The notes beneath the pieces were generated by a model, which was given only the letters and a program-made list of their open reading frames with translations, was not told where the DNA came from and made no database searches. From an uncultured Alphaproteobacteria bacterium (GTDB lineage Bacteria; Pseudomonadota; Alphaproteobacteria; Rs-D84): a stretch of 64,000 bases of DNA. A program made the translations under genes and the position numbers. The stretch covers positions 21,280 through 85,279 of the forward strand of contig CALXOX010000003.1 of NCBI GenBank assembly GCA_944390125.1, given 5' to 3'. Positions 301-44,644 of this stretch are shown piece after piece. Numbering within the stretch: the first letter of the stretch is position 1; each line of letters opens with the position of its first letter.

Positions 301-325
301 GGTTGCTTTTTCCTTGTTTAAAGAA

Positions 326-352
326 CAAAAAAAGTCGCACGATATGTGCGAC
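326..352 (-). terminator. Intrinsic terminator (minus strand)
   Basis: Hairpin GTCGCAC-GATA(T)-GTGCGAC at 334-352 preceded on plus by an A-run, which is a U-run after the hairpin on minus. Confidence 0.5.
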
Positions 353-360
353 CTGAACGA

Positions 361-393
361 AAAAATAAAAAAAATCCGCCAGTTTCCTGCGGA
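361..393 (-). terminator. Intrinsic terminator downstream of birA (minus strand)
   Basis: A-run 361-374 followed by TCCGC...GCGGA hairpin, downstream of birA stop. Confidence 0.4.
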
Positions 394-471
394 CATAATT
401 TCTCTTTTTTACGCATTATATAATACCATATTTTAACAAAAAAGTCAAGATAATATTTTTTTTGTTGGCGA

Positions 472-1155: not shown

Positions 1156-1549
1156 CAGTGTTTATGATAAATTCGCGTCCAAAAGATTTTCGCAGTTGGT
1201 ATATTGCGGTATCAACGGCATGCGTTGTTGCGTTTGGTGAATATCCTAAAGCCTTTCGTAAATCTGCGGCCGACATTCCGCCGGATTTATAAAGCATTAT
1301 AACTATTTGAGCCTGTATATATGGTAATTGTACTTTCCGCCCGAATATGTCATACAGCAACTGTATGTTTCCATCAATAGCATTTTGAATGGCTGTTTTT
1401 ATGATAATTGGCGTTGCTGGTTGCTTTATGTTCAGAGAATCAAAGTCAATAAATGTTTCATCAAATTCATCACTGACAGTTGCGCCGAGTTCGGATAAAA
1501 TCTGGCGCCAAATTGGGTCTGAAGAATAGATTCTGATACCGTTTAACAT
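1127..1549 (-). CDS. Putative transcriptional regulator with C-terminal winged-helix (OmpR/PhoB-like effector domain)
   Basis: C-terminal AADLRKALGYSPNATTHAVDTAIYQLRKSFG...INTDGVYKIG resembles trans_reg_C winged helix. Start chosen at internal ATG (MLNGIR..., 1547-1549). Overlaps birA start by 29 nt. Confidence 0.4.
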   Translation of the reverse strand: MLNGIRIYSSDPIWRQILSELGATVSDEFDETFIDFDSLNIKQPATPIIIKTAIQNAIDGNIQLLYDIFGRKVQLPYIQAQIVIMLYKSGGMSAADLRKALGYSPNATTHAVDTAIYQLRKSFGREFIINTDGVYKIGQL

Positions 1550-1642
1550 ACTGACATTAGAATAATAGATGTGTACAGACTTGTCCAATAAAAAAGACCG
1601 TGGGCAGCACCACGGTCTTTGTGTATCCAAAACGCGCAGAAA

Positions 1643-1888
1643 CTATTCGCGTTCTCTATTTTGTGGTTCTATGAACTTAGTAAAGTCCTGAATGCTGGCA
1701 CCGGTTGACGACAGAATTTTAGAAATACTGTTCGTCGAAGGCCATCTGGGTTGTCCTTCTTTAGACCAACGCTTGCTTTTATTAAAAGTGGTCGGGTCTA
1801 AACCACTGCACTTTGCTAAACCTGAACAAGACATACCATGTTCTGTTGCAAAGCGTTCTATTGCCCGCCAAACATCTTCATGTGTCAT
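1643..1888 (-). CDS. Small HTH DNA-binding protein (repressor-like); paralog of 46029..46274
   Basis: 81 aa. The W.AI...A..HG.S.SGLA..SG.D.T.FNKSKR...G.P.W.S..S..KI pattern is shared with the ORF at 46029 (about 40% identity by eye). Confidence 0.55.
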   Translation of the reverse strand: MTHEDVWRAIERFATEHGMSCSGLAKCSGLDPTTFNKSKRWSKEGQPRWPSTNSISKILSSTGASIQDFTKFIEPQNRERE

Positions 1889-2301
1889 TTTTTCTCTCTC
1901 CTCTGGTTAGTGTTCGGATTACTCCGAAACTCTGGACACCTGTGACATATGTCTAATACTGATTTTATTCCAGCCCAAGGCTACGGGCAACAAGGACGAT
2001 TTCCTAAATTTTTGCTTTATGTCCTAAAAATAACACTAAAAAATTTTTTTGACAATAATACTTGACAAATAATAAAATATGTATTACATTTCGATTCGTC
2101 AAAGGGGGAAACCCCGGCGACGGGGTGAAAACCTCTTAGGGGTTCAGGGATTCAGACTCCCTCCTACATTCTCTCTCCTCTGGACTCTGGACCCCCACTT
2201 GAAAGTTTAGAATGCCCATTTCTTTTTCTCCTTTCCTTCCTTTCAGGGCATTCGGAAACACCGGCGGGCGACCGCCGGCGTTTTTTTATTTGTTTCAAGT
2301 G

Positions 2302-3228
2302 TTATTTAGTAAATACAGAGAAAAGTTCCCAGTGTGCGCTGCCAACAAACTGGTCAACAGGGATTAGTGTTTGTAATTTATATCCACCACGGGTCAATAT
2401 ATTTGCATCACGTTGCCATGTAGTTGGATTACATGACACGTATATTATTTTAGGAACAGTACTTTTTACCAGTTCTTTGCATTGTGACATTGCGCCTGCA
2501 CGAGGTGGGTCCATTACGATGCAGTCGTACTGTGCCAACATTCCAACCGTCAAGGGGTGAGTGAACAGGTCTCGTTTTACACCTGTACCAACTATATCAA
2601 AGCCGTCGGCGTTCAATGCAAAGGTAAAATTACCAAGGCCACAGAACAAATCTGCAGTATGCTTTGCACCGGTCGCATGATTTATAACCAAATCACGCAA
2701 TGATTTTTCACTTTCTTCTGTCGGTTGCAAAAAAGCACCTGACGGATATTCGACACTCTTGCCCTCAAACGTGATTGACGGAACAGCGGTTTGCATAACT
2801 GTGCGCTCGTTCCAAGTGGCGCGTATAACGTTTGGCAGTTTTTCTGCAGCATTCTTAAATTCGCTAGAAAAGTAAGGAACAGCAGAAGTAATTGCTATAT
2901 CTATACCGTTATTGCAGACTGTTATTAAACAAGAGCCCGCGCCGTTCCAAGGCAACTTGGCAAGTTTCGGCAATATATCATTTATTTCAGAACGCATTAA
3001 AGGACAATTGCGTACAGGTACAATGTTCTTAGACTTATTCTGATACAAACCGAAATTTCCATCGGCAAAAGCAAAATCTGCACGTCTGCGTGTGCCTATA
3101 TCTGTCCATATTGCGCTGCCTGTAAGTGGCAAGTTGTTTAACTCTGCTAATTTCTTGGTACGATAATCACCATCTGCAAAATCATATTTGCAACCACCAC
3201 ATATACCAAAGAACGTACAAGTCTTCAT
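2302..3228 (-). CDS. RNA (uracil-5-)-methyltransferase, RlmD/TrmA family, with N-terminal Fe-S Cys cluster
   Basis: FFGICGGCKYD Cys cluster at N-terminus; class I SAM MTase motifs (DLFCGLGNFTF, MDPPRAG); conserved C-terminal Cys (YVSCNP). Confidence 0.75.
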   Translation of the reverse strand: MKTCTFFGICGGCKYDFADGDYRTKKLAELNNLPLTGSAIWTDIGTRRRADFAFADGNFGLYQNKSKNIVPVRNCPLMRSEINDILPKLAKLPWNGAGSCLITVCNNGIDIAITSAVPYFSSEFKNAAEKLPNVIRATWNERTVMQTAVPSITFEGKSVEYPSGAFLQPTEESEKSLRDLVINHATGAKHTADLFCGLGNFTFALNADGFDIVGTGVKRDLFTHPLTVGMLAQYDCIVMDPPRAGAMSQCKELVKSTVPKIIYVSCNPTTWQRDANILTRGGYKLQTLIPVDQFVGSAHWELFSVFTK

Positions 3229-24728: not shown

Positions 24729-25856
24729 TTAGTCTACTGGCAATGTAGTTTTTACTTTGCCGGCACCAGGGGTTGGTGCAATTGCGCACTTGTCACGAAT
24801 GAAAAGTAAAGCCCATGCACCTACACCAATCAATATCATGCCAAGCCCTAAAATACTATAGCGCCAACTGCCAAGCATTCCGCCAATTCCAATAATTAAA
24901 CATGTGCCGATATAAATGATATTATCGCCGATGCTGTACAAAGATAGAATTACAGAACGGTAGGTAGTTGGTACGAAATCTTGGAATCTGGAATAAAGCA
25001 GAACATTTACACCGCTGAACAGTACATATGCCAACCCAAGTGCCCATAATCCTGCCAACGAATAGAAGAACGAAAATAGAACGAAAGCTACACCGCCGGC
25101 ACAAATTACAGAATATAAAATCCAGTCTTTAACGCGTGTAAAGCGGTATGCAAATGTTTGACCCAAAACAGCACAGCCCAATATAAAGAATTGGATAAAA
25201 CCAACAAATTGTACTGGCAGTCCCACTTCTATACCAATAGGGCTCAGGTAGTCGTCCAAATAAGCTATATTTGCTACAAGCAAACTAAGCATAAACATCA
25301 AAAGTATACAAGGAGTTTTTGCGCATATGCGTACGCCGGTTTTCATCAGTTTGATAAAGTTTGTTTTGCGAACTTTGCGTTTAACATTCTGACTTGAACG
25401 CATATTTATGCTTGCAATACACATTGCAGCAATGGCCAATGATACTAATGATGCAAAGGTAATCCAGCCATATCCGGCGAACATCAGCAAAGACCCAAAT
25501 GCTGATAAAGCTGTACCGATTGCTTGTAAATTATACCGAATTCCCAGTACTTTTGCGTAAATCTTTTGGTGACGTCTTGCGCGTAGCTCGTCATATAGCA
25601 TGCTTTCAAATGCAACGTTATAAAATGCCACCTCTGTTCCCCATAAAAACATACCAATTGCAAAACCCTAGAAGGTGGGATTTAGGAACCATAGCATAAA
25701 AGCACAAGCTTTCAGGAATAAACCAAGTAAAATTGCACGCTTGGTTCCAAGTTTATTTGTAATCCAAGTAACAGGTATCTGTGTTACAAACGTTCCGACG
25801 GACAGAATTATGAACATCAGAGATAATTGAATGTCTGTCAGTCCATTTTCCTGCAT
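24729..25856 (-). pseudogene. MFS transporter pseudogene (in-frame amber stop plus N-terminal truncation)
   Basis: ORFs 24729..25652 and 25668..25856 are in the same frame, separated only by TAG at 25668-25670 (...WFLNPTF*GFAIGMFLWG...). MFS motif A (WITNKLGTKRAILLG) is present, but TM1 is missing: the frame upstream of 25893 is closed. Confidence 0.55.
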
Positions 25857-26069: not shown

Positions 26070-28508
26070 ATGGCAGTGAAAATGGATGAATTTTTATTAC
26101 AGTATTATATGCAGTATCGGTTTAACCATATGCCGCCAGAGGTTCGTGCGCAATTTGATGCTTACGTAAAGTCTGATGATTTCCGCGGGAATATGAAAAC
26201 GTGGAAAACGAAATTGATGCACCAGGATGCTAACGGTAAGTGGATTGAAAATGCTATGCCCGACCCAGCAAATTCTGCAGATGCGTTTTATATGGAAGAC
26301 GGCGATTGGAAGAAGTTATTTATCGCGTTTCAAAATGCTTTTCGTAATATGTCAGCGGACCGAGAAAAGCTTGTAAAAGACGGAAAAACTGACGCCGTAA
26401 ATTTCCTTGATACATATTTTGGGACTTTGCCAAGCCAACTATTTTCTAATAGTGTGGCGAACGCTGTCGCAGATAATCTTATCAGTAATGAATTTAAGAA
26501 CTTTTTAAATACCTATAAGACAAGATTAGAGGTCCAATTTCAAAATTGGGGGATTTTAGATAAAGATTTTACCTACAGTCAGTTGTTGTCAGGCATAATC
26601 TCGAAAAAATATAATTCTTCGCCAAGCTTTCAGAAGAAAATAAAGAAGATTGCGCAATATATTGATGCGTACAGTACATCAGAAGAATTTCGTAATGTTT
26701 TAAGGTTAAATCCAGGCGATACAATACCAGACTTTAGCCCGATTATAAATGGTTTTGATGACGAGCATGTTGATCCAGCAAAAATGGATCTGTTTAAGGG
26801 TAATGCCAATACTCGCGGTGATTATGTAGATTTGCTGAATACTCTTGTGAAGAACAAAAAAGTATATGAAGTATTCAAGCAATATGATGACAATAAAATT
26901 TCTGGTAAGTTAGAAGCTGCAAATTCTAAGTTAGAATATGATAATACAGATAGTAAGGATTATGTCCCGCCAAAGCGCACCGAGGAATTGACTTTTTATC
27001 AAAAGTTAAAGGGGGATGTAAATGATACTATCGAGGACTATCTTGATAAGTATCTGAAAATATCGGGTGACAGACTTTATTTCTCAGAATCTGCAAAACT
27101 TATAATCAAGGCTATAGGGAAGAGTTATAAACCAACGGAAGGCTTGGATAAGATATTAGAGAAAAAGTCTGATATAAAGAAGAGCCTTATGTATAAATCT
27201 CCAAGGGCAACGGACCATTTTGATTGGTTTACGAAGACCATGGAGGAGCTAAAAGCATCAATGCCAAAGACTTTTGCTGGGGCATTAAAAAATGGGCGTC
27301 AGTTAAAAGCAGTTGTTGAAGAACTGATTATGAAAGCCGTTCGTGAAAACAAGATAGAAGAAGCCAAAACAGCGATGGAAGTTTTGTCTGTCGTGAAATA
27401 TGGTTATACGAACAGCAAGATTATGGAGGCTTTTAATAAATCTGACCTGACGATATTTTCTGACAAAGGCTTGTCTTGGAATAAGAACGAGGGAGTCAAA
27501 TTTGTTACAACTGCGTTTGATTATACAATCAAAAAGGGACTGCAAGCGGTTGGATATACTTTGACGGGTCTTGGTAATGTTATAAGGCTGTCTGGCAGTA
27601 AATTTAATGGTCAGGCGAACAGAATAAGGAATCTTCATAATCAATGGGTTGCAAGTAATGCAGCGGAACGTAATACCGCGGAACAACGTAGAAATACAGA
27701 AAATCCACTTGATCAATCAATAATAAACGCGCAGCAGGCTATATTGACCAATTTGAATAATGCGGGGATAAATGCGGCAAGTTTGGCTCAAAAGAAGAAC
27801 GATTTACGAAGTGCTAAAGCTGCAGCGCAAACCGCACATGAAGCATACACGCAAGCTTCGGACACTTATGATGAAAAGAATTATATTGTCCAGATGGTAA
27901 ACGAGGTCAATACTATTGCGCAAGAAATGCAGACGTTAAATTCTGATATATCGGCATTACAAAATAGGTTTAGAGATCCTAATACTTATGCGGGGCTAAA
28001 TCCTGCAGCGGCATCTGCATTGGCTAATGATATAATGCGACAAGGACGTCAAAAGTCTGCTGAGGTGCAAGAAAAGTTTAATAGGTATCAAGAATTAAAT
28101 AACGTGCTGCAGCAAATTCCTCAGGCAGATATAAATGATGCAGTTGCAAATATTGGCAATTATCAGCAAGCGATGAATAGGGCAGAACAAGACAGTCTTG
28201 TAAAGCAACAGACCGCAGATACGTTAGAAACGCAAATAAACGAATTTGAAAACGCAACGGAGCTGGTTCAAGAGGCGACAGCACGTATTACACGGCGTAA
28301 CGAAGAAATGAGGACTTGGGACAATAAACACAAGGATAATTATAAAGAACTTGTTGCGTTCTGGGATATGTTGGAAACAGGGCGTAATTTGCATCTGGGT
28401 AAGTTTTATTCTTGGTCACTGGGAAGCGCGAAGGCAAAACAAAATGCGTTTAATGCCGTGAAAGTGGCTCAATTTAACCAGTATGCAACTAACTACAGTT
28501 TAACATAA
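26070..28508 (+). CDS. Large hypothetical coiled-coil protein (812 aa), candidate secreted effector
   Basis: No signal peptide. Long alpha-helical and coiled-coil stretches; N/Q/A-rich segments in the C-terminal third (QQAILTNLNNAGINAASLAQKKNDLRSAKAAAQTAHEAYTQ...); the extreme C-terminus is not low-complexity. Strong promoter and terminator. Confidence 0.6.
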   Translation: MAVKMDEFLLQYYMQYRFNHMPPEVRAQFDAYVKSDDFRGNMKTWKTKLMHQDANGKWIENAMPDPANSADAFYMEDGDWKKLFIAFQNAFRNMSADREKLVKDGKTDAVNFLDTYFGTLPSQLFSNSVANAVADNLISNEFKNFLNTYKTRLEVQFQNWGILDKDFTYSQLLSGIISKKYNSSPSFQKKIKKIAQYIDAYSTSEEFRNVLRLNPGDTIPDFSPIINGFDDEHVDPAKMDLFKGNANTRGDYVDLLNTLVKNKKVYEVFKQYDDNKISGKLEAANSKLEYDNTDSKDYVPPKRTEELTFYQKLKGDVNDTIEDYLDKYLKISGDRLYFSESAKLIIKAIGKSYKPTEGLDKILEKKSDIKKSLMYKSPRATDHFDWFTKTMEELKASMPKTFAGALKNGRQLKAVVEELIMKAVRENKIEEAKTAMEVLSVVKYGYTNSKIMEAFNKSDLTIFSDKGLSWNKNEGVKFVTTAFDYTIKKGLQAVGYTLTGLGNVIRLSGSKFNGQANRIRNLHNQWVASNAAERNTAEQRRNTENPLDQSIINAQQAILTNLNNAGINAASLAQKKNDLRSAKAAAQTAHEAYTQASDTYDEKNYIVQMVNEVNTIAQEMQTLNSDISALQNRFRDPNTYAGLNPAAASALANDIMRQGRQKSAEVQEKFNRYQELNNVLQQIPQADINDAVANIGNYQQAMNRAEQDSLVKQQTADTLETQINEFENATELVQEATARITRRNEEMRTWDNKHKDNYKELVAFWDMLETGRNLHLGKFYSWSLGSAKAKQNAFNAVKVAQFNQYATNYSLT

Positions 28509-30736: not shown

Positions 30737-31897
30737 ATGATGAAAATCGCGTTTTGCATACCAGATATGATAATAGGTGGTGTGGAAGCCGTTTTGCTGC
30801 GTACGTTAAATGAGTTGTTGGATACTGTTAAAGAAAATCCAAAATATGCTGGGGCAGAAATATGTGTTATAACTCATGCGCAGATAACAGAACCGTTATA
30901 CAGTCAGTGGTTTAAACAGCACCCAGAGGTAAAACTTTATACTTTTTACCCTTTGCAAAATTATTTTGAAAGTATGATTGCTTATACAGACTTTGTGTTT
31001 GTTCGTCAGGTACGTAAATTGATTTTCAGTTTATACAAAAAGTGCAGACGATTATCATTTAGGAATAAGTTTTCAGACATTGATGTTTTTATTGATTATA
31101 AGAACTGCTCATTTTTTAAAGAGTTGCGCGATTATAAGACTCGTAAGATAACTTGGATACATGGCAGCATAGGATATTTGCAAGATAATAATATTGATAA
31201 TCGTTTGCCAATGTACGACAACATTGTCGGGCTTACAGATGATTTCGTTTCAGATTTTAAAAAAATATTTCCAGATTTGGCGGACAGGGTTGTAAGAGTT
31301 TATAATCCAATTGATATAAATTTTATACGGAATTTATCTAAAGATGCACCCCATACAAGCGGCAAGTATTTTTGCCATGTTTCAAGATTGGAAAGCTTAC
31401 AAAAGGATGTTCGTACACTAATTGCAGCATTCAATGAGTTTTATCTAGATAATGGTTTGCCTGATATAAAGTTGTTGATAGTTGGCGATGGGCCGCAGAT
31501 AAAAGAACTAAAAAAAATGGTGTCGTTATTGCCAAGTAGCAATAACATTGTTTTTACTGGGTTGGCAAGAAACCCATTTGGTTATATGGAAAATGCACTT
31601 GCGAACATTTTGTCATCTAAGTCAGAAGGTTTGCCAACTGTTTTAGTAGAATCTATGGCGCTTGGGGTGTTATGTATTGCATCAAATTGTAAATATGGTC
31701 CACATGAAATTTTGCAAGATGGCAAGTCTGGTGTATTGTTTGAAGTAGGCAATGTTAAACAACTGGCACAGATTATGTCGGATGTTTATAATGGGAAGAT
31801 AGATGTATCATCTATAACTCAAAGTGCTACTGAGTCTTTAGAAAGATTTTCGCCGAAGGTTATAAATAAACAAATAATGGATTTGTTATGGAAGTAA
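30737..31897 (+). CDS. Glycosyltransferase family 4 (GT-B, group 1)
   Basis: E-x7-E motif (SKSEGLPTVLVESMALG) and GT4 C-terminal domain pattern. 386 aa. Confidence 0.75.
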   Translation: MMKIAFCIPDMIIGGVEAVLLRTLNELLDTVKENPKYAGAEICVITHAQITEPLYSQWFKQHPEVKLYTFYPLQNYFESMIAYTDFVFVRQVRKLIFSLYKKCRRLSFRNKFSDIDVFIDYKNCSFFKELRDYKTRKITWIHGSIGYLQDNNIDNRLPMYDNIVGLTDDFVSDFKKIFPDLADRVVRVYNPIDINFIRNLSKDAPHTSGKYFCHVSRLESLQKDVRTLIAAFNEFYLDNGLPDIKLLIVGDGPQIKELKKMVSLLPSSNNIVFTGLARNPFGYMENALANILSSKSEGLPTVLVESMALGVLCIASNCKYGPHEILQDGKSGVLFEVGNVKQLAQIMSDVYNGKIDVSSITQSATESLERFSPKVINKQIMDLLWK

Positions 31898-32820
31898 AAA
31901 GACTATTTTTATTTGCTGGCTATGATAATCAGGGAATCATAGATGATACCCTGTTGCATTATCTACGTTATTTATCTGGATATGGCGACATCATATTTGT
32001 AATGGACAATGTTGCTGCAAATGCAGAGTTGAATAAATTAAATGATATACAAAATATTTTATACCGTACTGCAGAACGTCATGGGGAATATGATTTTGGG
32101 TCTTATAAGCGTGGTTATCAGTGGGCGGACAAGCATGATTTATTGAATAAATATGACTGGATTTACCTTGTAAATGACAGCGTTTATGGCCCATTGTTTG
32201 ATATTAGGAATACATTAGAAGATTTAGAATCTAGGGGTGTTGATTTAACCGGTATGATAGATTTTGTAAACAAATTTACACCGGTACAAGTACAGTCATG
32301 GTTTGTTGGTTTAAGCCGACGCGTTGTGAATGAACAATTTTTTAAGGATTTTATGAATGGTATTCAGGCACAGACGGACAAACAACTGATTGTATTAAAG
32401 TATGAAGTTGGTTTATCACAATTGATATTGCAACATGGGTATAAGATGTCTACTTTTATAAGTGGCGAAAAGGGTGATGCTGTTCATCGCATATATGAGC
32501 AACCGTTAAAGATGTTAAAAAAGGGGCTGCCATTTATAAAAAAGCAGGCATTGATGAATTTGCAGGGAATGCAGTATTTGTACCCTTATACAACAGAGGC
32601 TTTTGTGGATGAAATTTATCATAATGCCTCAAGAACAGGCGTAAAGATAAATGTAATAAGGACAGAAAAACCGCGTTACGAGAAGTATTATCGATTGACA
32701 TTTTTATCAATACCAATATTGACTATTTACAGACAGTTGCACGACAACGGGATGTTGGTTTGTTATAAAGTCTATATATTTGATTTTGTGCCTGTGATTA
32801 AGATTTTACTAAACAGATAA
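31888..32820 (+). CDS. Rhamnan-synthesis-F (RgpF)-like N-terminal-domain protein
   Basis: LFAGYDNQGIIDDTLLHYLRYL...YDFGSYKRGYQW...YLVNDSVYGPLF resembles the N-terminal half of the RgpF/PF05045 family, from memory. Overlaps the GT4 end by 10 nt. Confidence 0.5.
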   Translation: MEVKRLFLFAGYDNQGIIDDTLLHYLRYLSGYGDIIFVMDNVAANAELNKLNDIQNILYRTAERHGEYDFGSYKRGYQWADKHDLLNKYDWIYLVNDSVYGPLFDIRNTLEDLESRGVDLTGMIDFVNKFTPVQVQSWFVGLSRRVVNEQFFKDFMNGIQAQTDKQLIVLKYEVGLSQLILQHGYKMSTFISGEKGDAVHRIYEQPLKMLKKGLPFIKKQALMNLQGMQYLYPYTTEAFVDEIYHNASRTGVKINVIRTEKPRYEKYYRLTFLSIPILTIYRQLHDNGMLVCYKVYIFDFVPVIKILLNR

Positions 32821-32953
32821 AAGTTCATTGATTTTTTTACTGTTTTGTGGTATAATTATGGGAAAGATTTGGGGCGATTTATTCGCCCTAATTTCTTTTT
32901 TAGGCCCCGCATATTTATGCGGGATTTTTTTGTTAAAAAATGAAGGCTAAAAG

Positions 32954-33787
32954 ATGTTTGAAATAAAATATTCTGGAGATGGGCAAACGAAAAAATTTGT
33001 TTTTTCTTTCCCATTTTTTACACCGTCTGATGTTTTTGTAATGTTGAATGGCGACGTAATACATTCTGGATACCAGTTATCAACGGTTAGTAATCAAGAA
33101 TCTTCTGATATACCGTATTCTGGTGGTACAGTTACGTTTGATGTTGCACCGAAACTTGGTGATAATATAAAAATTTTTAGAAGAATTGGTGTATCGCGCG
33201 TGGTAGATTATCAGCCGACTAAACCCATAGATCCACAGGCTTTGAACCAAGATTTTTCTTTTATGTTGGAAAAGTTAAAGGATTTTGACGGGATGCTGAC
33301 TGATTTTTATGACAAGTATTCTGAAATTATAAATTCAGATAGTTATAATGTTTTTACGCAAAAGTTAGATGATATAAATAATAAATTAAATGCATTGGGC
33401 GGGATAGATAATATTGGCAAGAAGAGCGATATAACGGCGCTACAAAATGCAACCAGTTTTACGGCGTCTGGCAAAGAATCTGTAGTATCTTGGCTGCAGA
33501 TAAACGGAAAATTCATAAATGCCAACTTCTTGGGAACGGAAGCTGGGGGGTATTTATACACGCCTGAGGCGCATGGTATATTGTCAGTAGTTTTCACAGC
33601 AAATGTTAGTGGAGATGCTGCCGTAGAGGCTCCTGATGCTAAAACTATATACCATAAAAGTATAACTGTTAATGCAAGAGAAACTATTTTGTTACCAGTG
33701 CATAAGGGATTGCAAATAAAGTTCACTGTACCGGCGCTAAAAGAAGTGAATTATCAAAGATTGTTTTTATTCAAGGGAGAACAATAA
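32954..33787 (+). CDS. Phage T7 gp17-like tail-fibre N-terminal (tail-attachment) domain protein
   Basis: IKYSGDGQTKKFVFSFPFF..VFVMLNGDV...GYQLS...VTFDVAPKLGDNIKIFRRIGVSRVVDYQ matches the conserved N-terminal pattern of T7-type tail fibres (Y.GDG....F.F.FPY...V.V..G....YT....V.F..AP..G..I.I.R.....VD). Confidence 0.5.
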   Translation: MFEIKYSGDGQTKKFVFSFPFFTPSDVFVMLNGDVIHSGYQLSTVSNQESSDIPYSGGTVTFDVAPKLGDNIKIFRRIGVSRVVDYQPTKPIDPQALNQDFSFMLEKLKDFDGMLTDFYDKYSEIINSDSYNVFTQKLDDINNKLNALGGIDNIGKKSDITALQNATSFTASGKESVVSWLQINGKFINANFLGTEAGGYLYTPEAHGILSVVFTANVSGDAAVEAPDAKTIYHKSITVNARETILLPVHKGLQIKFTVPALKEVNYQRLFLFKGEQ

Positions 33788-34086
33788 TGTTTTACACAAA
33801 TGAAATAAAGGACCACAAAATTGGTTCTTACACGGATGACAAGAATTTGGCTAAAAAGCTGGGTTTTAATATAAAACTTGAGAATATAGAAATAGCAGAT
33901 AATGGTATCGCATATGAAGCTGGCTTTGCGCCTGCGGCGCCACAAAAAAGTTATATAGAATTGCGACTTTTGGCGTACCCGCCTGTTGAAGAGCAATTGG
34001 ATATGATTTATTGGGATATGGTCAATGGTACCAGAAAATGGCAAGATACAATACAAGCAATCAAAGAGAAATATCCTAAAAATTGA
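33787..34086 (+). CDS. Small hypothetical protein translationally coupled to the tail-fibre-like gene
   Basis: ATG overlaps the upstream TAA (TAATG). 99 aa, no recognisable family. By position it could be a tail-fibre assembly or chaperone analogue. Confidence 0.4.
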   Translation: MFYTNEIKDHKIGSYTDDKNLAKKLGFNIKLENIEIADNGIAYEAGFAPAAPQKSYIELRLLAYPPVEEQLDMIYWDMVNGTRKWQDTIQAIKEKYPKN

Positions 34087-34087
34087 A

Positions 34088-34112
34088 AGAACCGGGTTTA
34101 TCCCGGTTTTTA
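34088..34112 (+). terminator. Intrinsic terminator
   Basis: CCGGG-TTTAT-CCCGG hairpin followed by T5. Confidence 0.5.
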
Positions 34113-34184
34113 TGGTAAAAATAACTTGATTTTACGTGATTATTGCTACTATACTCCCCTCTACAGTTATTTATGGAGAAAGGT

Positions 34185-37100
34185 ATGTCTTTTTTAAAGC
34201 GTAGCACGGAATATAATCTAATAGCAAAATCAAAATATTTCAATAAAAGATGGTATTTAAGGAAGTACGCAGATGTTGCCAGCAAGAGGGTGGACCCTGT
34301 AACACATTATTTGGAACATGGCTGGAAAGAGGGCAGAAATCCTGGACCTAAGTTTAGTACAGAACTTTATCTGAAAAATAATCCTGATGTGGCGGCAGCA
34401 AGGATAAATCCTTTGTTGCATTACGAGAGAAACGGGAAGTATGAGGTTGGAAGAATAGCCGTAAGACACAAATGTAATCGTTTTTTATATAAGTACCTTT
34501 CTTTTGTTCACAAATGTTTTAAACGTGCAGATATAAAACGTATTTTATTGATTTCGCATGAGTTTACTTATACCGGTGCGCCTTTATCTCTGTTAAAGGC
34601 CGCACAATTGCTGAAAGAAAAGGGATATGAAATAATAACTGTTTCTTTAAAGGCTGGAGGATTAGAAACAGAATTTAAGAAACTTGGCAAAGTAATTATA
34701 ACGAGTAATCTTAACAAAATACTACGTTGTGCCACTTTTGCGGATTTTGCCGTTGTGAATACAATCATTCCATATGAAGCGTACGACATGTTAAAGAATT
34801 TTATGCCTACTGCTTGGTGGATTAGGGAACCCGTTGGTGTTCTTAAAGGAAATTGCTTTATGCGGCAGATTTTTATGAATGCAGATAACGTATATACTAT
34901 GTCGCCGTGGTCCAGAGATGAGTTTTTGCCATATAACAGAAATATCGAAGTGATGCCGCATGGCTTAGACGACATGTTTGCTGGTAGTAAAGCTTTCCCT
35001 AAAAAGCCTACTTTTGCTGTGATTGGTAGTATTCATCCAAGAAAAGGACAGGATGTTTTTATAGATGCTGTAAAGAAATTACCGGCAGAGATTAGGAAAA
35101 AAGCTGCTTTTTTAATTGTTGGTAAATTAAATGTGTCAGATAGTGATTGGGAGAGCCTTGGGGCGCCAAAATGTATACAAGTAAAGCCAGAAATATCTAA
35201 TTTTGAGGATATGATAAAGTTTTATGGTGACATATCTTGTACAGTTGTTCCGTCTAGGGAAGAGCCTACATCCAGGGTCGCAATAGAATCCATGATGATG
35301 GGGCGCCCAGTTGTGATGTCAGATCAGGTCGGCGCACAATACTTGGTCAATAGCCGCAATGGTTATGTGTTCAAAAATGAAGATGCTAAACAATTGTCTG
35401 GTATATTAGCTAAACTTATAAAGTCTCCTGAAAAATTAAAAACGATGGGTAAGTATGCCAGAGAAGCTTATTTGAAGAACAATTCTATTCCTGTTTATAC
35501 GAAAAATTTACTTAATATGCTGTCAGATTGTAAAAATTCTTTTGATAATAAACCGACTAAAATACTGGTACATATTCATTTATTTTACCACGAGCAGTTA
35601 GATTGGTTTATATCTAGATTGAAAAATATAACCTGTGATTATGATTTGTGGATTACGGTTACAGAAAAAAATAAAGAAACTGAGGATAAAATAAAGAATT
35701 TTAAACCAGATACACATATTTTAAAAGTGCCCAATCGTGGTTATGATCTTTATCCATTTTGGTTGGTTTTACAAAATGTTTCATTGTTTGATTATGACGC
35801 GGTATTGAAGTTGCACACCAAGAATAAAAGAACTAAAAAATGGTGCAAGAACGGTATTTGCTATAATGGTTTTGAATGGCGTAACGATTTGATAAATCCT
35901 TTGTTGGGCAGTAAGAAATTGTTTCAGAAAGCAGTGGATTTTGTGAAATGCGATAATATTGGCATGGTTGGGTCCGCCAATTTGATTGGTAATAAAGAAA
36001 ATCCAGAGCAGGCCAAAAATACAAAAAAATTGTGTGAATTGATGGGAATAAAATATTCTCATGATGGCAAGTTTGTATGTGGCACGATGTTTTTGATAAA
36101 GGCAAATTTATTGCTGGTTTTTCAGCAGTATCCATTCAAAAAATCTGATTTCAGCTCGGAGTCAAAGACTGGAAGTACTGGTACTGTTGCGCATAGCTTA
36201 GAAACAGTTATGGGTTTGATTGTCGCAGACAGAAAATTAAAATTGGTTGGTGTTGATACGCTTGGAACATCGTTTAAGCATTTTTGCGCAAGGTACAAAC
36301 AAAAATATATAAATTTATTAAAAACAATAAGAAAACGTAAAAAAGAAGTTGATTATATAAAACATTCTAAGTATTTCAGTAAAAGGTGGTACTTGCGTAC
36401 ATATCCAGATGTTGCAAAGGCAAAGGTGAACCCAGCACATCATTATTTGCTGCATGGTTGGAAAGAAGGTCGTAAACCAGGACCTAAATTTGATCCTAAA
36501 TTTTATTTAGAAAATAATCTTGATGTGAAAAGAGCTGGGGTAAATCCATTGCTGCATTATGAGAAACATGGGAAATACGAAGGCAGAATTGTTTGCCTTA
36601 AAAGAAGTTTAAAGCCAGCTGGACTTAAAGAGTTTCATGATGTTTACGTTGACGCCTTTAAATGGCGTGGCAAGATTGCCAAACGGGTTGTTGTATCATT
36701 GACAACATATCCTGGACGAATCAAGTCAGTTTATGAAACTATAAACACGTTAAAAAATCAGTCTGTTAAACCAGATAAGGTCGTACTGTACTTATCTGAG
36801 CAAGAGTTTCCTAAAAAGGATAAGGGACTGCCAAGAAATTTAACAAAGTTATGTGACGATTGCTTTGAAATACATTGGATTAAGAAAACTCTGTATAGTT
36901 TTCAAAAACTTATACCGGCAATAAAAGAATATCCAAATGCTGTAATTGTTACTGCCGATGACGACATTTTGTATAAAAGCAATTGGCTGGAATTATTGGT
37001 GAAGGCATATTTAGAAAATCCTAATATAATTCATTGTCATCGTGCGCATAGAATAAAATTCCGTGGTGGCCATGTTATATCCTATAACTTATGGAAAATG

Positions 37101-37517
37101 GCGATACGTAATGAGTCTGCTCTATATAACAACTTTTTAACTGGGGTTGGCGGAGTGTTGTATCCACCACATTGTTTGGATAAAAATATTACTAATTCAA
37201 AGGAATTTTTGAAGTTATGCCCGAAAGCTGACGATATATGGATTTGGGCAATGGCGGTAAAAAATCATACAAAAATTCATGTCATAAAAGACAATATAAC
37301 TGCATTAGAATTGGTGCCTGGCAGTCAAGATGGTGATTGCTTATGCAAAATCAATACCGGTGCTGAATGTTATAATGATGTGCAATTAAAAAATGTTTTT
37401 GCAAAATATCCAGAAATTTTAGAAATGCTAAAGGACGAAAGAAGGAAAAACGCCATATTATCTTATTTGCTATACCCGTATTATTTACTATACTTTCTTA
37501 GAAAGGGTAAGAGATAG
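34185..37517 (+). CDS. Three-module polysaccharide glycosyltransferase (GT4, RgpF-like and GT-A-like modules) with duplicated ~75-aa module
   Basis: Start set to the ATG at 34185 with a GGAGAAAGG SD. GT4 E-x7-E motif (SREEPTSRVAIESMMMG). RgpF-like motifs (ILVHIHLFYHEQL, PNRGYDLYPF, KLHTKNKRT). C-terminal module VVVSLTTYPGRI...VTADDDILY. The block YF(N/S)KRWYLR.Y.DVA...V.P..HYL.HGWKEGR.PGPKF...YL.NN.DV..A..NPLLHYE..GKYE occurs twice. Confidence 0.7.
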   Translation: MSFLKRSTEYNLIAKSKYFNKRWYLRKYADVASKRVDPVTHYLEHGWKEGRNPGPKFSTELYLKNNPDVAAARINPLLHYERNGKYEVGRIAVRHKCNRFLYKYLSFVHKCFKRADIKRILLISHEFTYTGAPLSLLKAAQLLKEKGYEIITVSLKAGGLETEFKKLGKVIITSNLNKILRCATFADFAVVNTIIPYEAYDMLKNFMPTAWWIREPVGVLKGNCFMRQIFMNADNVYTMSPWSRDEFLPYNRNIEVMPHGLDDMFAGSKAFPKKPTFAVIGSIHPRKGQDVFIDAVKKLPAEIRKKAAFLIVGKLNVSDSDWESLGAPKCIQVKPEISNFEDMIKFYGDISCTVVPSREEPTSRVAIESMMMGRPVVMSDQVGAQYLVNSRNGYVFKNEDAKQLSGILAKLIKSPEKLKTMGKYAREAYLKNNSIPVYTKNLLNMLSDCKNSFDNKPTKILVHIHLFYHEQLDWFISRLKNITCDYDLWITVTEKNKETEDKIKNFKPDTHILKVPNRGYDLYPFWLVLQNVSLFDYDAVLKLHTKNKRTKKWCKNGICYNGFEWRNDLINPLLGSKKLFQKAVDFVKCDNIGMVGSANLIGNKENPEQAKNTKKLCELMGIKYSHDGKFVCGTMFLIKANLLLVFQQYPFKKSDFSSESKTGSTGTVAHSLETVMGLIVADRKLKLVGVDTLGTSFKHFCARYKQKYINLLKTIRKRKKEVDYIKHSKYFSKRWYLRTYPDVAKAKVNPAHHYLLHGWKEGRKPGPKFDPKFYLENNLDVKRAGVNPLLHYEKHGKYEGRIVCLKRSLKPAGLKEFHDVYVDAFKWRGKIAKRVVVSLTTYPGRIKSVYETINTLKNQSVKPDKVVLYLSEQEFPKKDKGLPRNLTKLCDDCFEIHWIKKTLYSFQKLIPAIKEYPNAVIVTADDDILYKSNWLELLVKAYLENPNIIHCHRAHRIKFRGGHVISYNLWKMAIRNESALYNNFLTGVGGVLYPPHCLDKNITNSKEFLKLCPKADDIWIWAMAVKNHTKIHVIKDNITALELVPGSQDGDCLCKINTGAECYNDVQLKNVFAKYPEILEMLKDERRKNAILSYLLYPYYLLYFLRKGKR

Positions 37518-37523
37518 AATGCT

Positions 37524-38201
37524 ATGAAAAAAAGAAATAAACTTTTAATTTTATTTATCAGCTTGCTTTTGGTGTTTATAGCAGGATGGTTGATTCATTA
37601 TCAAGTAAATGTATTCAAACTGAATCAGGATATCAAGAATACCGCTGTTGATACTGTTGTATATCGACCATATTTATTGGGTACAAAAATATCATTTGCT
37701 GAAGGTGGAAATAGTTCTGACTACATAAAAACAGAAGATGGTTGGGGTGGTCAAGAACCAGAACACAGATGTGCATTGGGCAAGCGTGCAGTTGTTCGGC
37801 TTTATATTCCAGATAGCATTGGTGAGAATTTACGTTTAACAGTTGATGGTTTTGGTGTGTTTTCGTTTAAAACAGCGACGTACCAGGAAGTAAAAGTTTA
37901 CGGTAATGATGTGTTGATGACCACATGGCAGGCTGGATATGATGGCCCCTTTAGTGTAGATATTCCGAACAATATAATTACTGATAATTCTCTGATATTA
38001 CGTTTTGAGTTTGCTAAGCCGCATAGTCCTGCGGGGGATAAACGAAAAATAGGTATGGCGGTTAGAAGTATGGAAATAAGCCGTATAGTTGGGTCTCAGA
38101 CAAAGCGAAAAATTGGTAAATGGGTAAAAGATAATTTGATGGGTGGCGGCGTAAAGCAGGAATATGATACCGCCGTATCAAAAAACGAAAATTGGTTATA
38201 A
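37524..38201 (+). CDS. Membrane-anchored hypothetical protein (225 aa)
   Basis: N-terminal TM (LLILFISLLLVFIAGWLI) with an extracytoplasmic beta-rich domain. Sits inside the polysaccharide locus. Confidence 0.45.
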   Translation: MKKRNKLLILFISLLLVFIAGWLIHYQVNVFKLNQDIKNTAVDTVVYRPYLLGTKISFAEGGNSSDYIKTEDGWGGQEPEHRCALGKRAVVRLYIPDSIGENLRLTVDGFGVFSFKTATYQEVKVYGNDVLMTTWQAGYDGPFSVDIPNNIITDNSLILRFEFAKPHSPAGDKRKIGMAVRSMEISRIVGSQTKRKIGKWVKDNLMGGGVKQEYDTAVSKNENWL

Positions 38202-38213
38202 TATAGGGCGATT

Positions 38214-40007
38214 ATGTCTAACGATAAACAGCAAAATAGTATAAATAAGTTGGCTAAAAATGCGATAATAAAAAATTACAAGCGCATGTGGCCGTATGTG
38301 AAGCCTTATTGGAAGCAGGGGCTGCTTTCCATATTGTTGGCTATGCCTATTGGTGCCTTAGAGGGCGTTATAGCGATGTCTTTGCGCCCATATATGGATT
38401 TGGTTATGGTGGATAAATCCATTGAGGCGGCTTGGTATATTCCATTGGTTATAGTGTTGTTTACTTCTGTACAGGGTGGTTTGACATATGCAGCAAATTA
38501 TTTGAATACATGGGTTGGTGCAAAAATTACGAATTTGCTGAAGTTGGATTTGTACAAGAAGATGTTGATGTTTGATACTAATTTCTTCAACCGTCGCAAT
38601 TCTGGTGATATTTTGCAAATGTTTAACAGAAATGCGGATGCAGCGTGTTCAGGTTTGCTTACGAACTTAAAGAATTTTGTGCAGAAACTGTTTACGGCTT
38701 TGTCTTTAATATTTGTTTTGTTTTATAATTCATGGCAACTAGCGTTGGTATGCGTAACAATTTTGGTTGTTGCTTTTTTGCCCATGACTACATTAAAGAA
38801 AAAAATTCAGTCTGTTTTTGATAGTTCTTTGGTGGCAGAATCTTCTTTAATGACTGCCTATAATGAAACGTATTCTGGTAATAAAACGATTATCTCGTAT
38901 AATTTATCTGATTATCAAAAGAATAAATTCAAAAGCATTTTGGATGGCGTTTTTAAATTGCAGATGAAGATGGTTCAACGAACCAGATGGTTGACGCCTG
39001 TAATGCACATAATTTTATCAATTGGTATTGGTGCGGCAATATGGTTTGGTTCATTTTTGGTGTTGAATGGGTTTATAACTAGTGGCGCATTTGTATCATT
39101 TTTAACGGCTCTTATAATGTTGTATAACCCTATGAAAAGCATTGGCTCTAATTATAATTCTGTATTGATGTCTTTTATGGCCATAGAACGGGTTTTTGAG
39201 ATTATGGATTCAAAACCAGCTATTGTCGATAAGCCAGAATCTAAAGAAATGCCGGCTTTACATCATACAATAGAGTTTAAGAATTTAAATTTTGAATATA
39301 ATCGTGGCGTTCCTATCTTAAAGAACATAAACCTGACGGTACAGCAAGGACAAATTATCGCTTTGGTTGGGAATTCTGGTGGTGGTAAGACAACTTTGGT
39401 AAGTTTGTTGCCGCGTTTTTATGACCCTACAAGTGGTGCAATTTTAATTGATGGGACAGATATTCGCGATTTTACATTGAAATCATTGCGTCAAAACATA
39501 GGTGTGGTTTTCCAGGATAATTTCTTATTTGCAGGCACAATTCGTGAAAACATTATGTTGGGTAACGAGAACGCTACTCAAGAACAGTTAGACACAGCGA
39601 TAAAAATGGCGTGTTTGGACGATTTTGTGCACAGTTTGAAAAATGGCTTAGACACTCAAATTGGCGAGCGTGGTATATTGTTATCAGGTGGTCAGAAACA
39701 GCGTGTTGCCATTGCGCGGGCATTTTTGAAGAATGCGCCTATATTGATATTGGATGAAGCGACATCTGCGCTTGATAATAAATCCGAAGCAGTCGTTCAG
39801 CAGGCAATAGAAAACTTGATGAAGGACAAAACAGTATTCGTTATAGCGCACAGATTATCCACAATAAGAAATGCTTCTAAGATAGTTGTGGTAAATCAGG
39901 GTGAAATTGTTGAAGCTGGTACCCACGAAGAATTACTGCAACATGAATGTGGGGCATATAAGACTTTGTATGATATGCAGTTTAAGTGTAATGCTCCATC
40001 GGAATAG
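38214..40007 (+). CDS. ABC exporter, fused permease/ATPase (MsbA/NdvA-like type I exporter)
   Basis: Six-TM N-terminal domain. NBD with Walker A GNSGGGKTT, signature LSGGQKQRVAIARA and Walker B ILILDEATSALD. Confidence 0.8.
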   Translation: MSNDKQQNSINKLAKNAIIKNYKRMWPYVKPYWKQGLLSILLAMPIGALEGVIAMSLRPYMDLVMVDKSIEAAWYIPLVIVLFTSVQGGLTYAANYLNTWVGAKITNLLKLDLYKKMLMFDTNFFNRRNSGDILQMFNRNADAACSGLLTNLKNFVQKLFTALSLIFVLFYNSWQLALVCVTILVVAFLPMTTLKKKIQSVFDSSLVAESSLMTAYNETYSGNKTIISYNLSDYQKNKFKSILDGVFKLQMKMVQRTRWLTPVMHIILSIGIGAAIWFGSFLVLNGFITSGAFVSFLTALIMLYNPMKSIGSNYNSVLMSFMAIERVFEIMDSKPAIVDKPESKEMPALHHTIEFKNLNFEYNRGVPILKNINLTVQQGQIIALVGNSGGGKTTLVSLLPRFYDPTSGAILIDGTDIRDFTLKSLRQNIGVVFQDNFLFAGTIRENIMLGNENATQEQLDTAIKMACLDDFVHSLKNGLDTQIGERGILLSGGQKQRVAIARAFLKNAPILILDEATSALDNKSEAVVQQAIENLMKDKTVFVIAHRLSTIRNASKIVVVNQGEIVEAGTHEELLQHECGAYKTLYDMQFKCNAPSE

Positions 40008-42970: not shown

Positions 42971-44644
42971 TTATTTTGCACCGTACGAGATCAATAATTT
43001 AGCAATATCTTTATCAGAGTTTTTCTTGGCATGTTTGAGGGGTGTATAGCCAGACGTGTCGGCCATATTGACATCTGCACCAGCATCCAATAGAACAGTT
43101 ATCAATTCAAGTTTAGCCTTCTTATCAAACTTTGAATTAGGATAAAGCTTACGATTTATAGCGTAAATGAGAGCTGTAGACGTGTATGTGTCGGCATTAA
43201 CATCCGCACCAAGTTCTATAAGTTTCTCTATTACTTTAGGATTTGAATTGTTTGCAACAGCATTCATTAAAACTGTGCGTCCTGTTTTTGTCGCATAATT
43301 AGGATCGGCACCGTATTTAACTAATACAGCAAAAATTTCTGGGTTTGTGTTGTACGTCGAAGCTTCCATCAGAGGAATAATTTTTTCTGTTTTTTCCAAT
43401 TTAATTGGTCTTATTGCATGCTTTAATACTTCTTTAGGCAATTTGTGTACTACTTCAACAGAATTAGGATCTATTCCTTTTTTTAGCAATTCTTCAACTT
43501 GTTTAGCGTTACCAGAATTTTGTATTAAATGTACAAATGCTTTTACCTTGTCATCGCTAGCTGGTGTTAATACTTCTTCTAAACCTTTTTCCCAGGAAAT
43601 CATCCGAGAAGAAATAACTGCCCCTTTATCAACAAAAAGGCGAAGAATTTCTAAATCTTGTTCTCGTTCTTCTTTGCGTGCGCTTGTGTTTCTAACAATA
43701 CATTCTATAATTGGTTCTCCGTCTATTTTGGCATTCACATCGGCACCTAGGTCGACAAGTTTTTTTACTGAATTTGCAGTATATTCAAAGCTATCGATCA
43801 AATCGCACAAAACTAGAGTGATGTCTTGTTTGTCCACCAATCCCTTTTTGTTGAGCAGTTTATAAATCTTTTCAATCATGTCCGGGTTAGGATTGTGTGT
43901 AGCGGCATTCAGCAAGGTTTGATTTTCGGGACCAGCAAAAATCCCACCATCTTCGTTGATAGAAACCCCTAAATTAGCACCGGCTGAGATCAGATAATCA
44001 ACAACCTCTAATGATGGGTTGTCTCTACATGCTACATATAAAGCTACGTCTAGCTCGTCTTTGGGCATCCCATTATCAAACAATGATTTTATAATCAACG
44101 GATTAGGGTTGCATTGTGCGGCGATAATCAATGCACTACGGTCTTCTTCATCGCAGGCGGACATATCAGCACCGTTATGTAAGAGATAATCAATAATTTC
44201 AACATTTTGGTTAAATTTTGCTGCGTAAAGCAAGGCACTGCCTGCAACAATGCTATCTTCGCCATAATCATCACGTTCATCAGATAAGAACAACTTCTGT
44301 GCCTCGTTTACTATCGAATTTAGTACGGATTTCGGTATGTTGTCAGGGTCCTTTATTTTTGCAGCATAATTCTTTTTTTTCATGACACATCTTACTAAGA
44401 AACCAAAGTAGTCTTTTGTTTCGGCATTTATGTCGGCCCCAGCCTCTACTAAAGTCTTAATAACATCTAGGCATGCTCCGGATTTAACAGCTATAATAAG
44501 GGGTGTGGAACCATTTTTTGTTTCGCAATTTACATCTGCACCTAGCGATATGAATTTTTGTATTTCTTTACTAGATACTTTGCTGTTTGAACAGGCAGTA
44601 AGCAATTCTATATCTACATCAATAATATCTTCAGAATGTGACAT
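42971..44644 (-). CDS. Ankyrin-repeat protein (557 aa)
   Basis: At least 10 ankyrin-like repeats with GADVNA, GADINAE, GANLGV, GADPNY and LL.AGADVN loops. Confidence 0.85.
   Translation of the reverse strand: MSHSEDIIDVDIELLTACSNSKVSSKEIQKFISLGADVNCETKNGSTPLIIAVKSGACLDVIKTLVEAGADINAETKDYFGFLVRCVMKKKNYAAKIKDPDNIPKSVLNSIVNEAQKLFLSDERDDYGEDSIVAGSALLYAAKFNQNVEIIDYLLHNGADMSACDEEDRSALIIAAQCNPNPLIIKSLFDNGMPKDELDVALYVACRDNPSLEVVDYLISAGANLGVSINEDGGIFAGPENQTLLNAATHNPNPDMIEKIYKLLNKKGLVDKQDITLVLCDLIDSFEYTANSVKKLVDLGADVNAKIDGEPIIECIVRNTSARKEEREQDLEILRLFVDKGAVISSRMISWEKGLEEVLTPASDDKVKAFVHLIQNSGNAKQVEELLKKGIDPNSVEVVHKLPKEVLKHAIRPIKLEKTEKIIPLMEASTYNTNPEIFAVLVKYGADPNYATKTGRTVLMNAVANNSNPKVIEKLIELGADVNADTYTSTALIYAINRKLYPNSKFDKKAKLELITVLLDAGADVNMADTSGYTPLKHAKKNSDKDIAKLLISYGAK

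Follow-up and report, generated by a model that had tools for sequence, protein, structure and literature searches.

A podovirus-type tail-fiber gene pair maintained in a lipopolysaccharide glycan locus of Candidatus Enterousia, and its possible service to a resident phage-derived element

Why should a bacterial chromosome keep a podovirus-type tail-fiber gene among its glycosyltransferase genes, with no tail genes nearby? We addressed this question for two overlapping open reading frames (ORFs), here termed genes A and B, in a 64,000-nucleotide (nt) stretch of the contig CALXOX010000003.1 (positions 21,280 to 85,279; assembly GCA_944390125.1) from an uncultured alphaproteobacterium of the Rs-D84 lineage. 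We refer to this stretch, at its full length, as the window, and to related loci by L numbers where they need to be told apart. The closest named genome, among the matches listed in a genome scan, is Candidatus Enterousia avicola; Enterousia belongs to the uncultured order Rs-D84 of the Alphaproteobacteria and is found in animal guts, with genomes of ~0.75 to 1.0 Mb (PMC12306168). A first-pass annotation had taken the pair to be a T7-type fiber protein coupled to a small ORF within a polysaccharide synthesis locus and had entertained both a domesticated glycan-binding module and a phage remnant as explanations. Both ORFs lie where it had placed them, with a one-base overlap:

32954-33787, plus strand: gene A, a short tail fiber of 277 amino acids (aa), identified from PHROG tail-fiber matches, a structural model, and selection
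33787-34086, plus strand: gene B, a 99-aa partner whose start codon overlaps the stop codon of A (TAATG)

Our analysis leans, by a narrow balance of probability, toward A and B being the fiber of a resident, domesticated element resembling a gene transfer agent (GTA), encoded in trans to the particle genes. The pair would thus represent an intact, host-maintained podovirus fiber module (a short trimeric fiber plus its partner) fixed beside msbA in Candidatus Enterousia. It is on account of a phage-derived gene cluster of the same species, ~38 kb away and without its fiber gene, that we now read the pair as a probable trans-encoded fiber and no longer as an orphan glycan-binding module.

We regard the assignment of A as a fiber as secure despite a subthreshold Pfam score. 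With regard to the T7 gp17-type N-terminal domain (N-domain) claimed in the first-pass annotation, the Pfam profile PF03906 (Phage_T7_tail) gave E=0.13 and 12.3 bits, below its cutoff of 25.2, and covered residues 4 to 61 only. The claim itself held up: residues 4 to 106 matched the PHROG tail-fiber families phrog_2710 (E=8.5e-7), phrog_1640 (E=2.1e-6), and phrog_21412 (E=3.3e-6), fibers of T7-like podoviruses were recovered with A by tblastn, and a profile search retrieved 2747 relatives, most of which share only the N-domain and shaft (the first ~150 residues). The gp17 N-domain fold, as seen in solved tail complexes, is also present, with residues 1 to 79 forming a T7-gp17-type tail-docking beta domain. 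This is followed by a neck motif (R..DYQPT..IDP..LNQDF), a helical shaft (residues 94 to 166) modeled at low confidence, as expected when a trimeric shaft is modeled as a monomer, a QNAT recombination hinge (residues 164 to 167; 33443-33454), and a confidently modeled beta-sandwich tip (residues 183 to 273; 33500-33772). The tip, whose structure had been singled out for prediction, has the beta-sandwich jelly-roll fold of carbohydrate-binding modules and resembles these as well as other fiber tips; the fold is generic, and residues 170 to 277 have no Pfam match and hence no membership by sequence in a carbohydrate-binding module family. The N terminus (MFEIKYSGDGQ), with its first strand beginning at residue 3, shows no signal peptide or anchor. 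The first-pass annotation had considered 277 aa unusually small for a fiber; since relatives of A are often 260 to 300 aa long, it is instead a short fiber of normal size rather than a truncation. Long-fiber versions of the N-domain family exist in larger phages, as illustrated by an 801-aa fiber (L116:3636-6041) on a 47-kb IMG/VR phage contig.

Gene B belongs with phage fibers by context. It matches phrog_9114 (E=2.5e-12) and phrog_1787, both PHROGs of unknown function, and is 41 to 48% identical to cyanophage proteins; homologs occur within the fiber gene runs of P-SSP7 and MEP301. We recovered 341 relatives in viral contigs, and in 6 of 10 sampled contigs a tail or fiber gene lies immediately 5' of the homolog with a gap of ≤14 nt. 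This gene context supports B as a probable fiber partner, and the view of B as a small phage-type protein coupled to A stands, given the TAATG overlap, its phage PHROG family, and its position downstream of fiber genes in phages too. A more specific role as a tail-fiber assembly chaperone, which had been proposed from position, is not upheld by any Pfam or NCBIfam match or by a PDB fold match (best E 2.6; model pLDDT [predicted local distance difference test score] of 91), and B may at most be supposed to act in this way. An exclusive tie to A-type fibers can be set aside: an A-family N-domain was detectable near B in only 3 of 80 viral loci, and B accompanies fibers in general.

The nearest phage relatives of the A N-domain, at ~40% identity, are fiber stubs of 178 to 184 aa, in which the N-domain and helices are followed by a conserved acidic tail; a beta tip is lacking. 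Across A and the stubs, 27 positions are invariant, the neck motif among them, and within A conservation is highest in the N-domain. The stubs are encoded by a compact podovirus-like cluster that we found in Rs-D84 metagenome-assembled genomes and IMG/VR contigs. It runs from the scaffold and major head genes through those for tail tubular proteins A and B, a 115- to 128-aa gene, and the stub to the N-terminal part of the large terminase (TerL-N). Next come an antisense block, which holds a 213-aa gene together with genes for an XRE-type regulator and a DnaB-like helicase, then the C-terminal part (TerL-C) and the portal; the element is collinear over at least 17 kb in seven divergent contigs. 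The large terminase gene is split in every element copy (L015:10518-15251; also L014, L017, L019, L020, L024, L025, and L137) into an ATPase part of ~202 aa (phrog_38 positions 275 to 459) and a nuclease part of ~307 aa (482 to 705), both well conserved and set apart by the 3.2-kb antisense block. The stubs end in a peptide, LINDYG...DDYGxL (L024:3811-4359 and ~40 other element copies), which could be a docking site for another protein.

The left flank of the element (LpxI, a TrmA-like gene, small ORFs, and BirA) is the gene set found at the left end of the window, where the following feature leads into it:

1-375, minus strand: start of a 160-aa gene leading from birA (472-1155) into the element, with 46 to 48% identity to its homologs in L015 and L020

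A same-species contig, L137, is 99.65% identical to the window over positions 1-3171 and runs past the window edge into the cluster. Here, the genes from scaffold and head through tubular A and B and the 115-aa gene to TerL-N are all collinear, and the stub alone is missing, with the 115-aa gene ending 8 bp before TerL-N. No A, B, or stub-like sequence was present in the 12.7 kb of L137. This empty fiber slot lies ~38.4 kb from A, so that the suggestion to look for a prophage without its fiber gene led to a positive result. Apart from bases 1-375, the scanned parts of the 64-kb window hold no further phage genes, in agreement with the first-pass statement that none occur in the flanking 20 kb. 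As the cluster neither adjoins A-B nor is complete, no complete adjoining prophage is present, and the idea of a domesticated module, rather than a part of such a prophage, was borne out.

The empty slot is not peculiar to this species. Among 75 element copies holding both genes that flank the slot, the stub was present in 43 (gap of 530 to 563 bp) and absent in 32 (gap of 3 to 82 bp). A hidden Markov model of the N-domain found nothing in the 32 stub-less contigs (294 kb) and recovered all 10 stub-bearing controls at 1e-45 to 1e-51. Among the matches listed in the genome scan, two genomes with A-B gave no stub match and six with a stub gave no A-B match. All eight copies with sufficient flank have birA immediately 5' of the element, and the BirA proteins of their hosts are 62 to 73% identical to that of the window. 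Four of five copies share the right flank, and the element genes show a degree of divergence similar to that of the adjoining host genes. In stub-less copies, the ratio of nonsynonymous to synonymous substitution rates (dN/dS) is 0.02 to 0.12 for the head, the 115-aa protein, and TerL-N; for tubular A and B, where dS is saturated, the upper bounds are <0.09. Integration at a tRNA is ruled out, as no tRNA genes occur at the element in five loci, and no integrase was found among the scanned element ORFs, several flanking ORFs being without matches, with Pfam not run on those. A metagenome contig scan gave one irrelevant locus, and single-protein scans of viral contigs gave no matches. These sequence comparisons point to vertical inheritance at a fixed position and to purifying selection on the structural genes, both of which are criteria for a GTA-like system. 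Together with host-paced divergence, a probable spread of particle genes over more than one locus, and the split terminase, the fixed position beside birA suggests that the element is a vertically inherited, domesticated GTA-like particle system with its genes distributed over more than one locus. That A serves its particle, and that the particle packages random host DNA, the property by which a GTA is defined, and transfers it, would be predictions of this interpretation.

A-B itself is a long-standing resident of its own locus. The surrounding genes are as follows:

30737-31897, plus strand: GT1 glycosyltransferase, conserved upstream of A-B
31888-32820, plus strand: RgpF-N-type stand-alone protein, conserved upstream of A-B
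34143-37517, plus strand: multidomain glycosyltransferase (GT4/GT1, RgpF C-part, C-terminal GT), third member of the allelic cassette described below
37524-38201, plus strand: p225, a membrane-anchored beta-rich protein, conserved downstream of A-B
38214-40007, plus strand: MsbA-type lipid A flippase (TIGR02203, 531 bits)

The gene order around the pair is thus GT1, the RgpF-N-type gene, A, B, a 1110- to 1124-aa multidomain glycosyltransferase, p225, and the MsbA-type gene, which confirms that A and B sit among glycosyltransferases. The neighboring "ABC exporter" is an MsbA-type lipid A flippase rather than a polysaccharide exporter. From p225 and this flippase, the locus is best read as one for lipopolysaccharide (LPS) or lipooligosaccharide glycosylation. 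The A family has ~20 members, all 276 to 277 aa long and 53 to 100% identical, and all long contigs place A-B with the RgpF-N gene on one side and the large glycosyltransferase on the other; MsbA identity between the lineages is 87 to 90%. In the distant locus L033, A-B (A, 40% identity; B, 53%) is inverted and 3' of the glycosyltransferase, at the same locus beside a p225 homolog (34%) and msbA. Comparison of synteny in relatives therefore finds A-B kept at the LPS/msbA locus, the L033 inversion included. For comparisons with unsaturated dS, to which all of our A and B values are confined, dN/dS is 0.04 to 0.16 for the N half of A, 0.07 to 0.23 for the C half, and 0.08 to 0.17 for B, similar to the values of adjoining genes. 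Such strong purifying selection and long-term synteny, across lineages down to 40% identity, rule out a nonfunctional remnant, so that the earlier suggestion of a phage remnant falls.

The variable part of the fiber is exchanged together with its neighbors. Between the window and L011, a locus of the same species, the flanks on both sides are at least 99% identical, and divergence extends from ~33430 inside A, just 5' of the QNAT hinge, to 37517, ending at the start of p225. Within this interval, the A tips are 61% identical in amino acid sequence, the B proteins 65%, and the glycosyltransferases, which differ in domain architecture, 39%. The fiber tip, B, and the adjacent glycosyltransferase have thus been exchanged as one cassette within the species. 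The N and C halves of A have different histories in other genome pairs as well, which marks the QNAT hinge as a recurrent recombination point. We had also considered strict covariation of the tip with the glycosyltransferase type; it holds in the same-species pair and fails across lineages, and we retain it as linkage.

A-B also appears to be a transcription unit of its own, delimited by the following features:

32828-32856, plus strand: promoter-like site (TTGATT, 17-nt spacer, TATAAT, with a TG upstream), from a consensus scan
32869-32891, plus strand: leader hairpin 1 with a T-run after it, resembling a terminator, within the 5' leader of A
32906-32923, plus strand: leader hairpin 2, also with a T-run after it, found in 5 of 8 aligned loci (4 of 6 lineages)
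34090-34108, no strand assigned: hairpin and T-run 3' of B, terminator-like, closing the A-B transcription unit

The promoter core TTGATTTTTTT and the TG-extended -10 element (TG.TATAAT) are invariant in eight divergent loci, the inverted L033 included, and TTGATTTTT with a well-spaced, good TATAAT -10 element is the sole such site in the window; a promoter function is accordingly predicted here. A leader hairpin with a T-run is found in every lineage with entirely different stem sequences that nevertheless always pair, so that the changes are compensatory; it belongs to A because L033 has no codirectional gene upstream. Hairpin 2 is absent from the L009, L030, and L031 lineages. The hairpin after B is kept with compensatory changes in 7 of 7 aligned loci, inverted L033 again among them, and in L033 the promoter-like site, leader hairpins, and terminator all move with the module. 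Terminators so close to a promoter suggest conditional read-through. Searches of the A leader for known RNA elements returned only subthreshold Rfam noise, and nothing meaningful was found in the way of repeats, att sites, or inverted repeats around A-B.

We propose that the A trimer would be assembled in the cytoplasm, where B may assist or cap the tip. The N-domain of A would then dock with tubular proteins A and B in the tail of the birA-adjacent element; the empty slot, the common N-domain family, and selection are observed, and docking is what they lead us to expect. The tip would next bind a glycan of the cell surface, the likeliest candidate being the LPS glycoform that the neighboring glycosyltransferase makes, as its fold and its genetic linkage to that gene would allow. 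Finally, the joint exchange of the tip, B, and the glycosyltransferase as one cassette would keep the receptor and receptor-binding domain matched. A trans-encoded fiber would explain why, in a protein with no tail genes nearby, conservation is highest in the tail-docking domain, why the pair is retained in a genome of <1 Mb, why a cleanly emptied slot goes with continued selection on the remainder of the element, and why the phage partner B is kept with the tip. A wider version, in which the fiber moved to the LPS-glycan locus in many Rs-D84 lineages and a GTA-like particle is thereby aimed at cells of the same glycotype, is conceivable, and we hold it as doubtful.

Several observations weigh against a trans-encoded fiber. 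A-B has been seen together with a stub-less element in one species only, and the identity of the A N-domain to the stubs is only ~40%, with a loop insertion (DIPYSGG) peculiar to A. Stub-less particles might simply be functional without fibers. By sequence identity, elements with and without the stub are intermingled, which calls for several gains or losses of the stub. We found no promoter motif common to A-B and the element, and expression of A-B may be conditional, with terminator-like hairpins right after the promoter. Across lineages, the glycosyltransferase is 79 to 86% identical where the tip is 59 to 64%, and the tip is 74% identical where the glycosyltransferase is 37%; as tip identity does not follow glycosyltransferase identity, linkage is established and matched specificity is a supposition. 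A-B is missing from the 17-kb locus read in L032, a syntenic relative. Lastly, at the 3' edge of the homologous glycan locus of a sister lineage, L034 encodes a 304-aa protein (L034:15643-16557, minus strand) whose head is an Mtd_N domain, the N-domain of the tropism determinant of phage BPP-1, and whose tip is 38% identical to tips of fibers with an A-type N-domain (P0036). We rejected homology of this head to the A N-domain (hhalign probability of 0.1), and phage fibers of more than one type have thus settled at the glycan locus. No B-like gene was seen adjoining the L034 gene.

Other accounts of A-B have to be weighed against this background. The pair might be an independent antiphage device, acting either as a cytoplasmic decoy that occupies the fiber-docking sites of podophages and yields defective virions or as an LPS mask released by lysis onto kin. 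Such a device would make use of the best conserved part of A, an N-domain of the type carried by podophage elements of the same host clade, it would sit within the locus making the likely phage receptor, and its expression could depend on an antiterminator acting at the hairpins after the promoter; furthermore, among the matches listed in the genome scan, two A-B genomes have no stub match and six stub genomes have no A-B match. We nonetheless judge it unlikely. The birA-adjacent element is syntenic and under purifying selection, not an invader, a decoy needs no selected, variable receptor-binding tip with a fiber partner, and a literature search gave no precedent. Neither A nor B matches a PADLOC model (E<=0.01), which rules out a known defense system. 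Alternatively, the element could be an ordinary temperate podophage with site-specific integration beside birA, with stub-less copies being defective and A-B an unrelated captured module kept for other reasons or by linkage. Many copies are classed as viral by IMG/VR, the element encodes the XRE-type regulator and DnaB-like helicase, its conserved head, portal, and terminase genes against variable tail genes form a phage-like gradient, and fiber genes with two unrelated types of N-domain occur at the glycan locus. This is quite improbable, however, given that birA adjoins the element in all eight hosts with a BirA 62 to 73% identical to that of the window and that stub-less copies make up 43% of the elements, at dN/dS of 0.02 to 0.12. 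Moreover, loss of the stub is clean (3 to 82 bp left) with no decay of the element, and linkage alone does not yield dN/dS of 0.04 to 0.23 over saturated dS in a genome of <1 Mb.

Two further explanations would dispense with a particle altogether. Recognition of the finished glycan is known from O-antigen pathways that depend on ABC transporters (the WbdD/Wzt carbohydrate-binding module logic), and by analogy A-B might be a cytoplasmic part of LPS-glycan assembly, with a detached carbohydrate-binding module on a coiled coil serving chain-length or quality control. We find this very unlikely: the L032 locus without the pair indicates that glycan assembly does not require it, the module can lie inverted and 3' of the glycosyltransferase (L033), a promoter and terminators of its own insulate it, and the conserved tail-docking N-domain and phage partner B would be left unexplained. 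Hardly credible, in our estimate, is a cell-surface adhesin fiber for attachment to the host or to partner cells in the manner of the MAT fibers of Bdellovibrio; 21 of 21 MAT proteins have a signal peptide and a conserved N-terminal domain of their own, whereas A has no signal peptide or anchor and bears an N-domain of the phage tail-docking type.

The remaining genes of the window are housekeeping genes, including those for BamA, RseP, UppS, LpxI, RNase E/G, RecG, AckA, LigA, PBP1, and signal peptidase, and a few observations concern the glycan locus and its surroundings. We had considered whether A-B had split an RgpF gene by insertion, with the upstream ORF covering profile positions 1 to 200 and the downstream glycosyltransferase positions 255 to 502. 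This was discarded: the stand-alone RgpF-N family of ~310 aa is widespread, with 1433 homologs, and the upstream ORF is therefore a complete gene. The large glycosyltransferase (34143-37517) has a promoter-like site of its own at 34126-34155 and contains, near its N terminus and again after the RgpF-C part, a motif of ~70 aa (YF.KRWYLR.Y.DV...P..HY...GW.EGR.PGP.F...YL..N.DV....NPLLHYE..GKYEGR); in strain L005, an insertion of ~167 bp breaks the gene into 728- and 429-aa products. p225, with its N-terminal membrane anchor and beta-rich domain, matches nothing in Pfam, NCBIfam, or PHROGs and lies directly 5' of msbA wherever both genes occur, L032 included. A resolvase/invertase gene stands directly 5' of the glycan locus in several relatives (L009:7059-7775, L010:5575-6291, L012:7058-7774, L028:8129-8725, and L032:7130-7762), with a Resolvase domain and, in L009, L010, and L028, also HTH_7, and such a gene is found 3' of the locus in some strains of the species of the window (L002 and L004:19006-19566), the window itself having none. 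These enzymes might drive phase variation or rearrangement of the locus, e.g., the L033 inversion. Farther away, the MFS transporter gene (24729-25652) encodes 307 aa in the window, 419 aa in the same-species strains L002, L004, and L006, and 300 plus 95 aa in L001, which looks like strain-level truncation or frameshift. A conserved 812-aa ORF (26070-28508) has no match in Pfam, PHROGs, NCBIfam, or PADLOC and is syntenic between ackA and tatD in all Enterousia loci. A 557-aa protein (42971-44644, minus strand) consists almost entirely of ankyrin repeats, a eukaryote-like trait in a gut bacterium with a reduced genome.

If A-B does serve the birA-adjacent element in trans, it would be, to our knowledge, the first case of a phage-derived particle that has its receptor-binding protein encoded within the biosynthetic locus of the likely receptor, and it would offer a simple genetic means of keeping lock and key matched during diversification of surface glycans. 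The gut would moreover gain a second GTA-like system of podovirus type, in a clade of uncultured alphaproteobacteria whose genomes are <1 Mb and in which each retained gene is informative. For metagenomes and viromes, the prediction is that fiber-less elements (32 of the 75 surveyed) pair with a fiber gene elsewhere in the genome. For annotation, this counsels caution, since "orphan" fibers of glycan loci and fiber-less "defective" prophages may be the halves of one system.

Among the known systems closest to A are the T7-type podovirus fibers, i.e., gp17 and its relatives and the fibers of LME-1, Carin-1, and P-SCSP1u. In contrast to these, A is chromosomal, lies among LPS glycosyltransferase genes ~38 kb from the nearest tail genes, falls below threshold for PF03906, is short (277 aa), and has its own host-type promoter and hairpin leader. 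The Bdellovibrio MAT fibers are likewise encoded on the chromosome and form trimers with swappable phage-like tips, preceded by a signal peptide and their own N-terminal domain (PMC10769870). A has neither the signal peptide nor the MAT N-domain and carries a phage tail-docking domain instead. In phages Mu (G segment) and P1 (C segment), the variable end of the fiber and a downstream assembly protein switch as a cassette. A-B resembles them in that the N part of the fiber is constant and the variable C part and small downstream gene change jointly at a conserved hinge; the exchange here differs in being allelic between strains and in including the glycosyltransferase. We found no inverted alternative copies at the A-B locus, and we draw no link between A-B and the invertase genes that flank the locus in some relatives.

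Rhodobacter capsulatus has a GTA (RcGTA) that is multilocus, with a tail fiber and head spikes that are encoded off the main cluster and bind capsule (PMC5026251, PMC10218006). The present system shares with it an alphaproteobacterial host and, if A indeed serves the particle, a recognition protein set apart from the main particle cluster. RcGTA is not known to be of the T7 tubular-tail type, and its fiber gene is not reported within a receptor biosynthesis locus. Here, terL is split by an antisense cassette. The GTA-like FpGTA of Faecalibacterium prausnitzii has been judged most likely podovirus-like and has a second operon, missing in some strains, that includes a tail fiber and a receptor-binding protein (PMC12946183). 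We regard RcGTA, with its recognition proteins at separate loci, and the two-operon FpGTA as precedents for the present interpretation. We found no sequence relationship between it and the element, its host is a Firmicute, and its second operon is one of structural and lysis genes rather than a glycan locus. What the two have in common is that each is probably a podovirus-type, GTA-like element of a gut bacterium.

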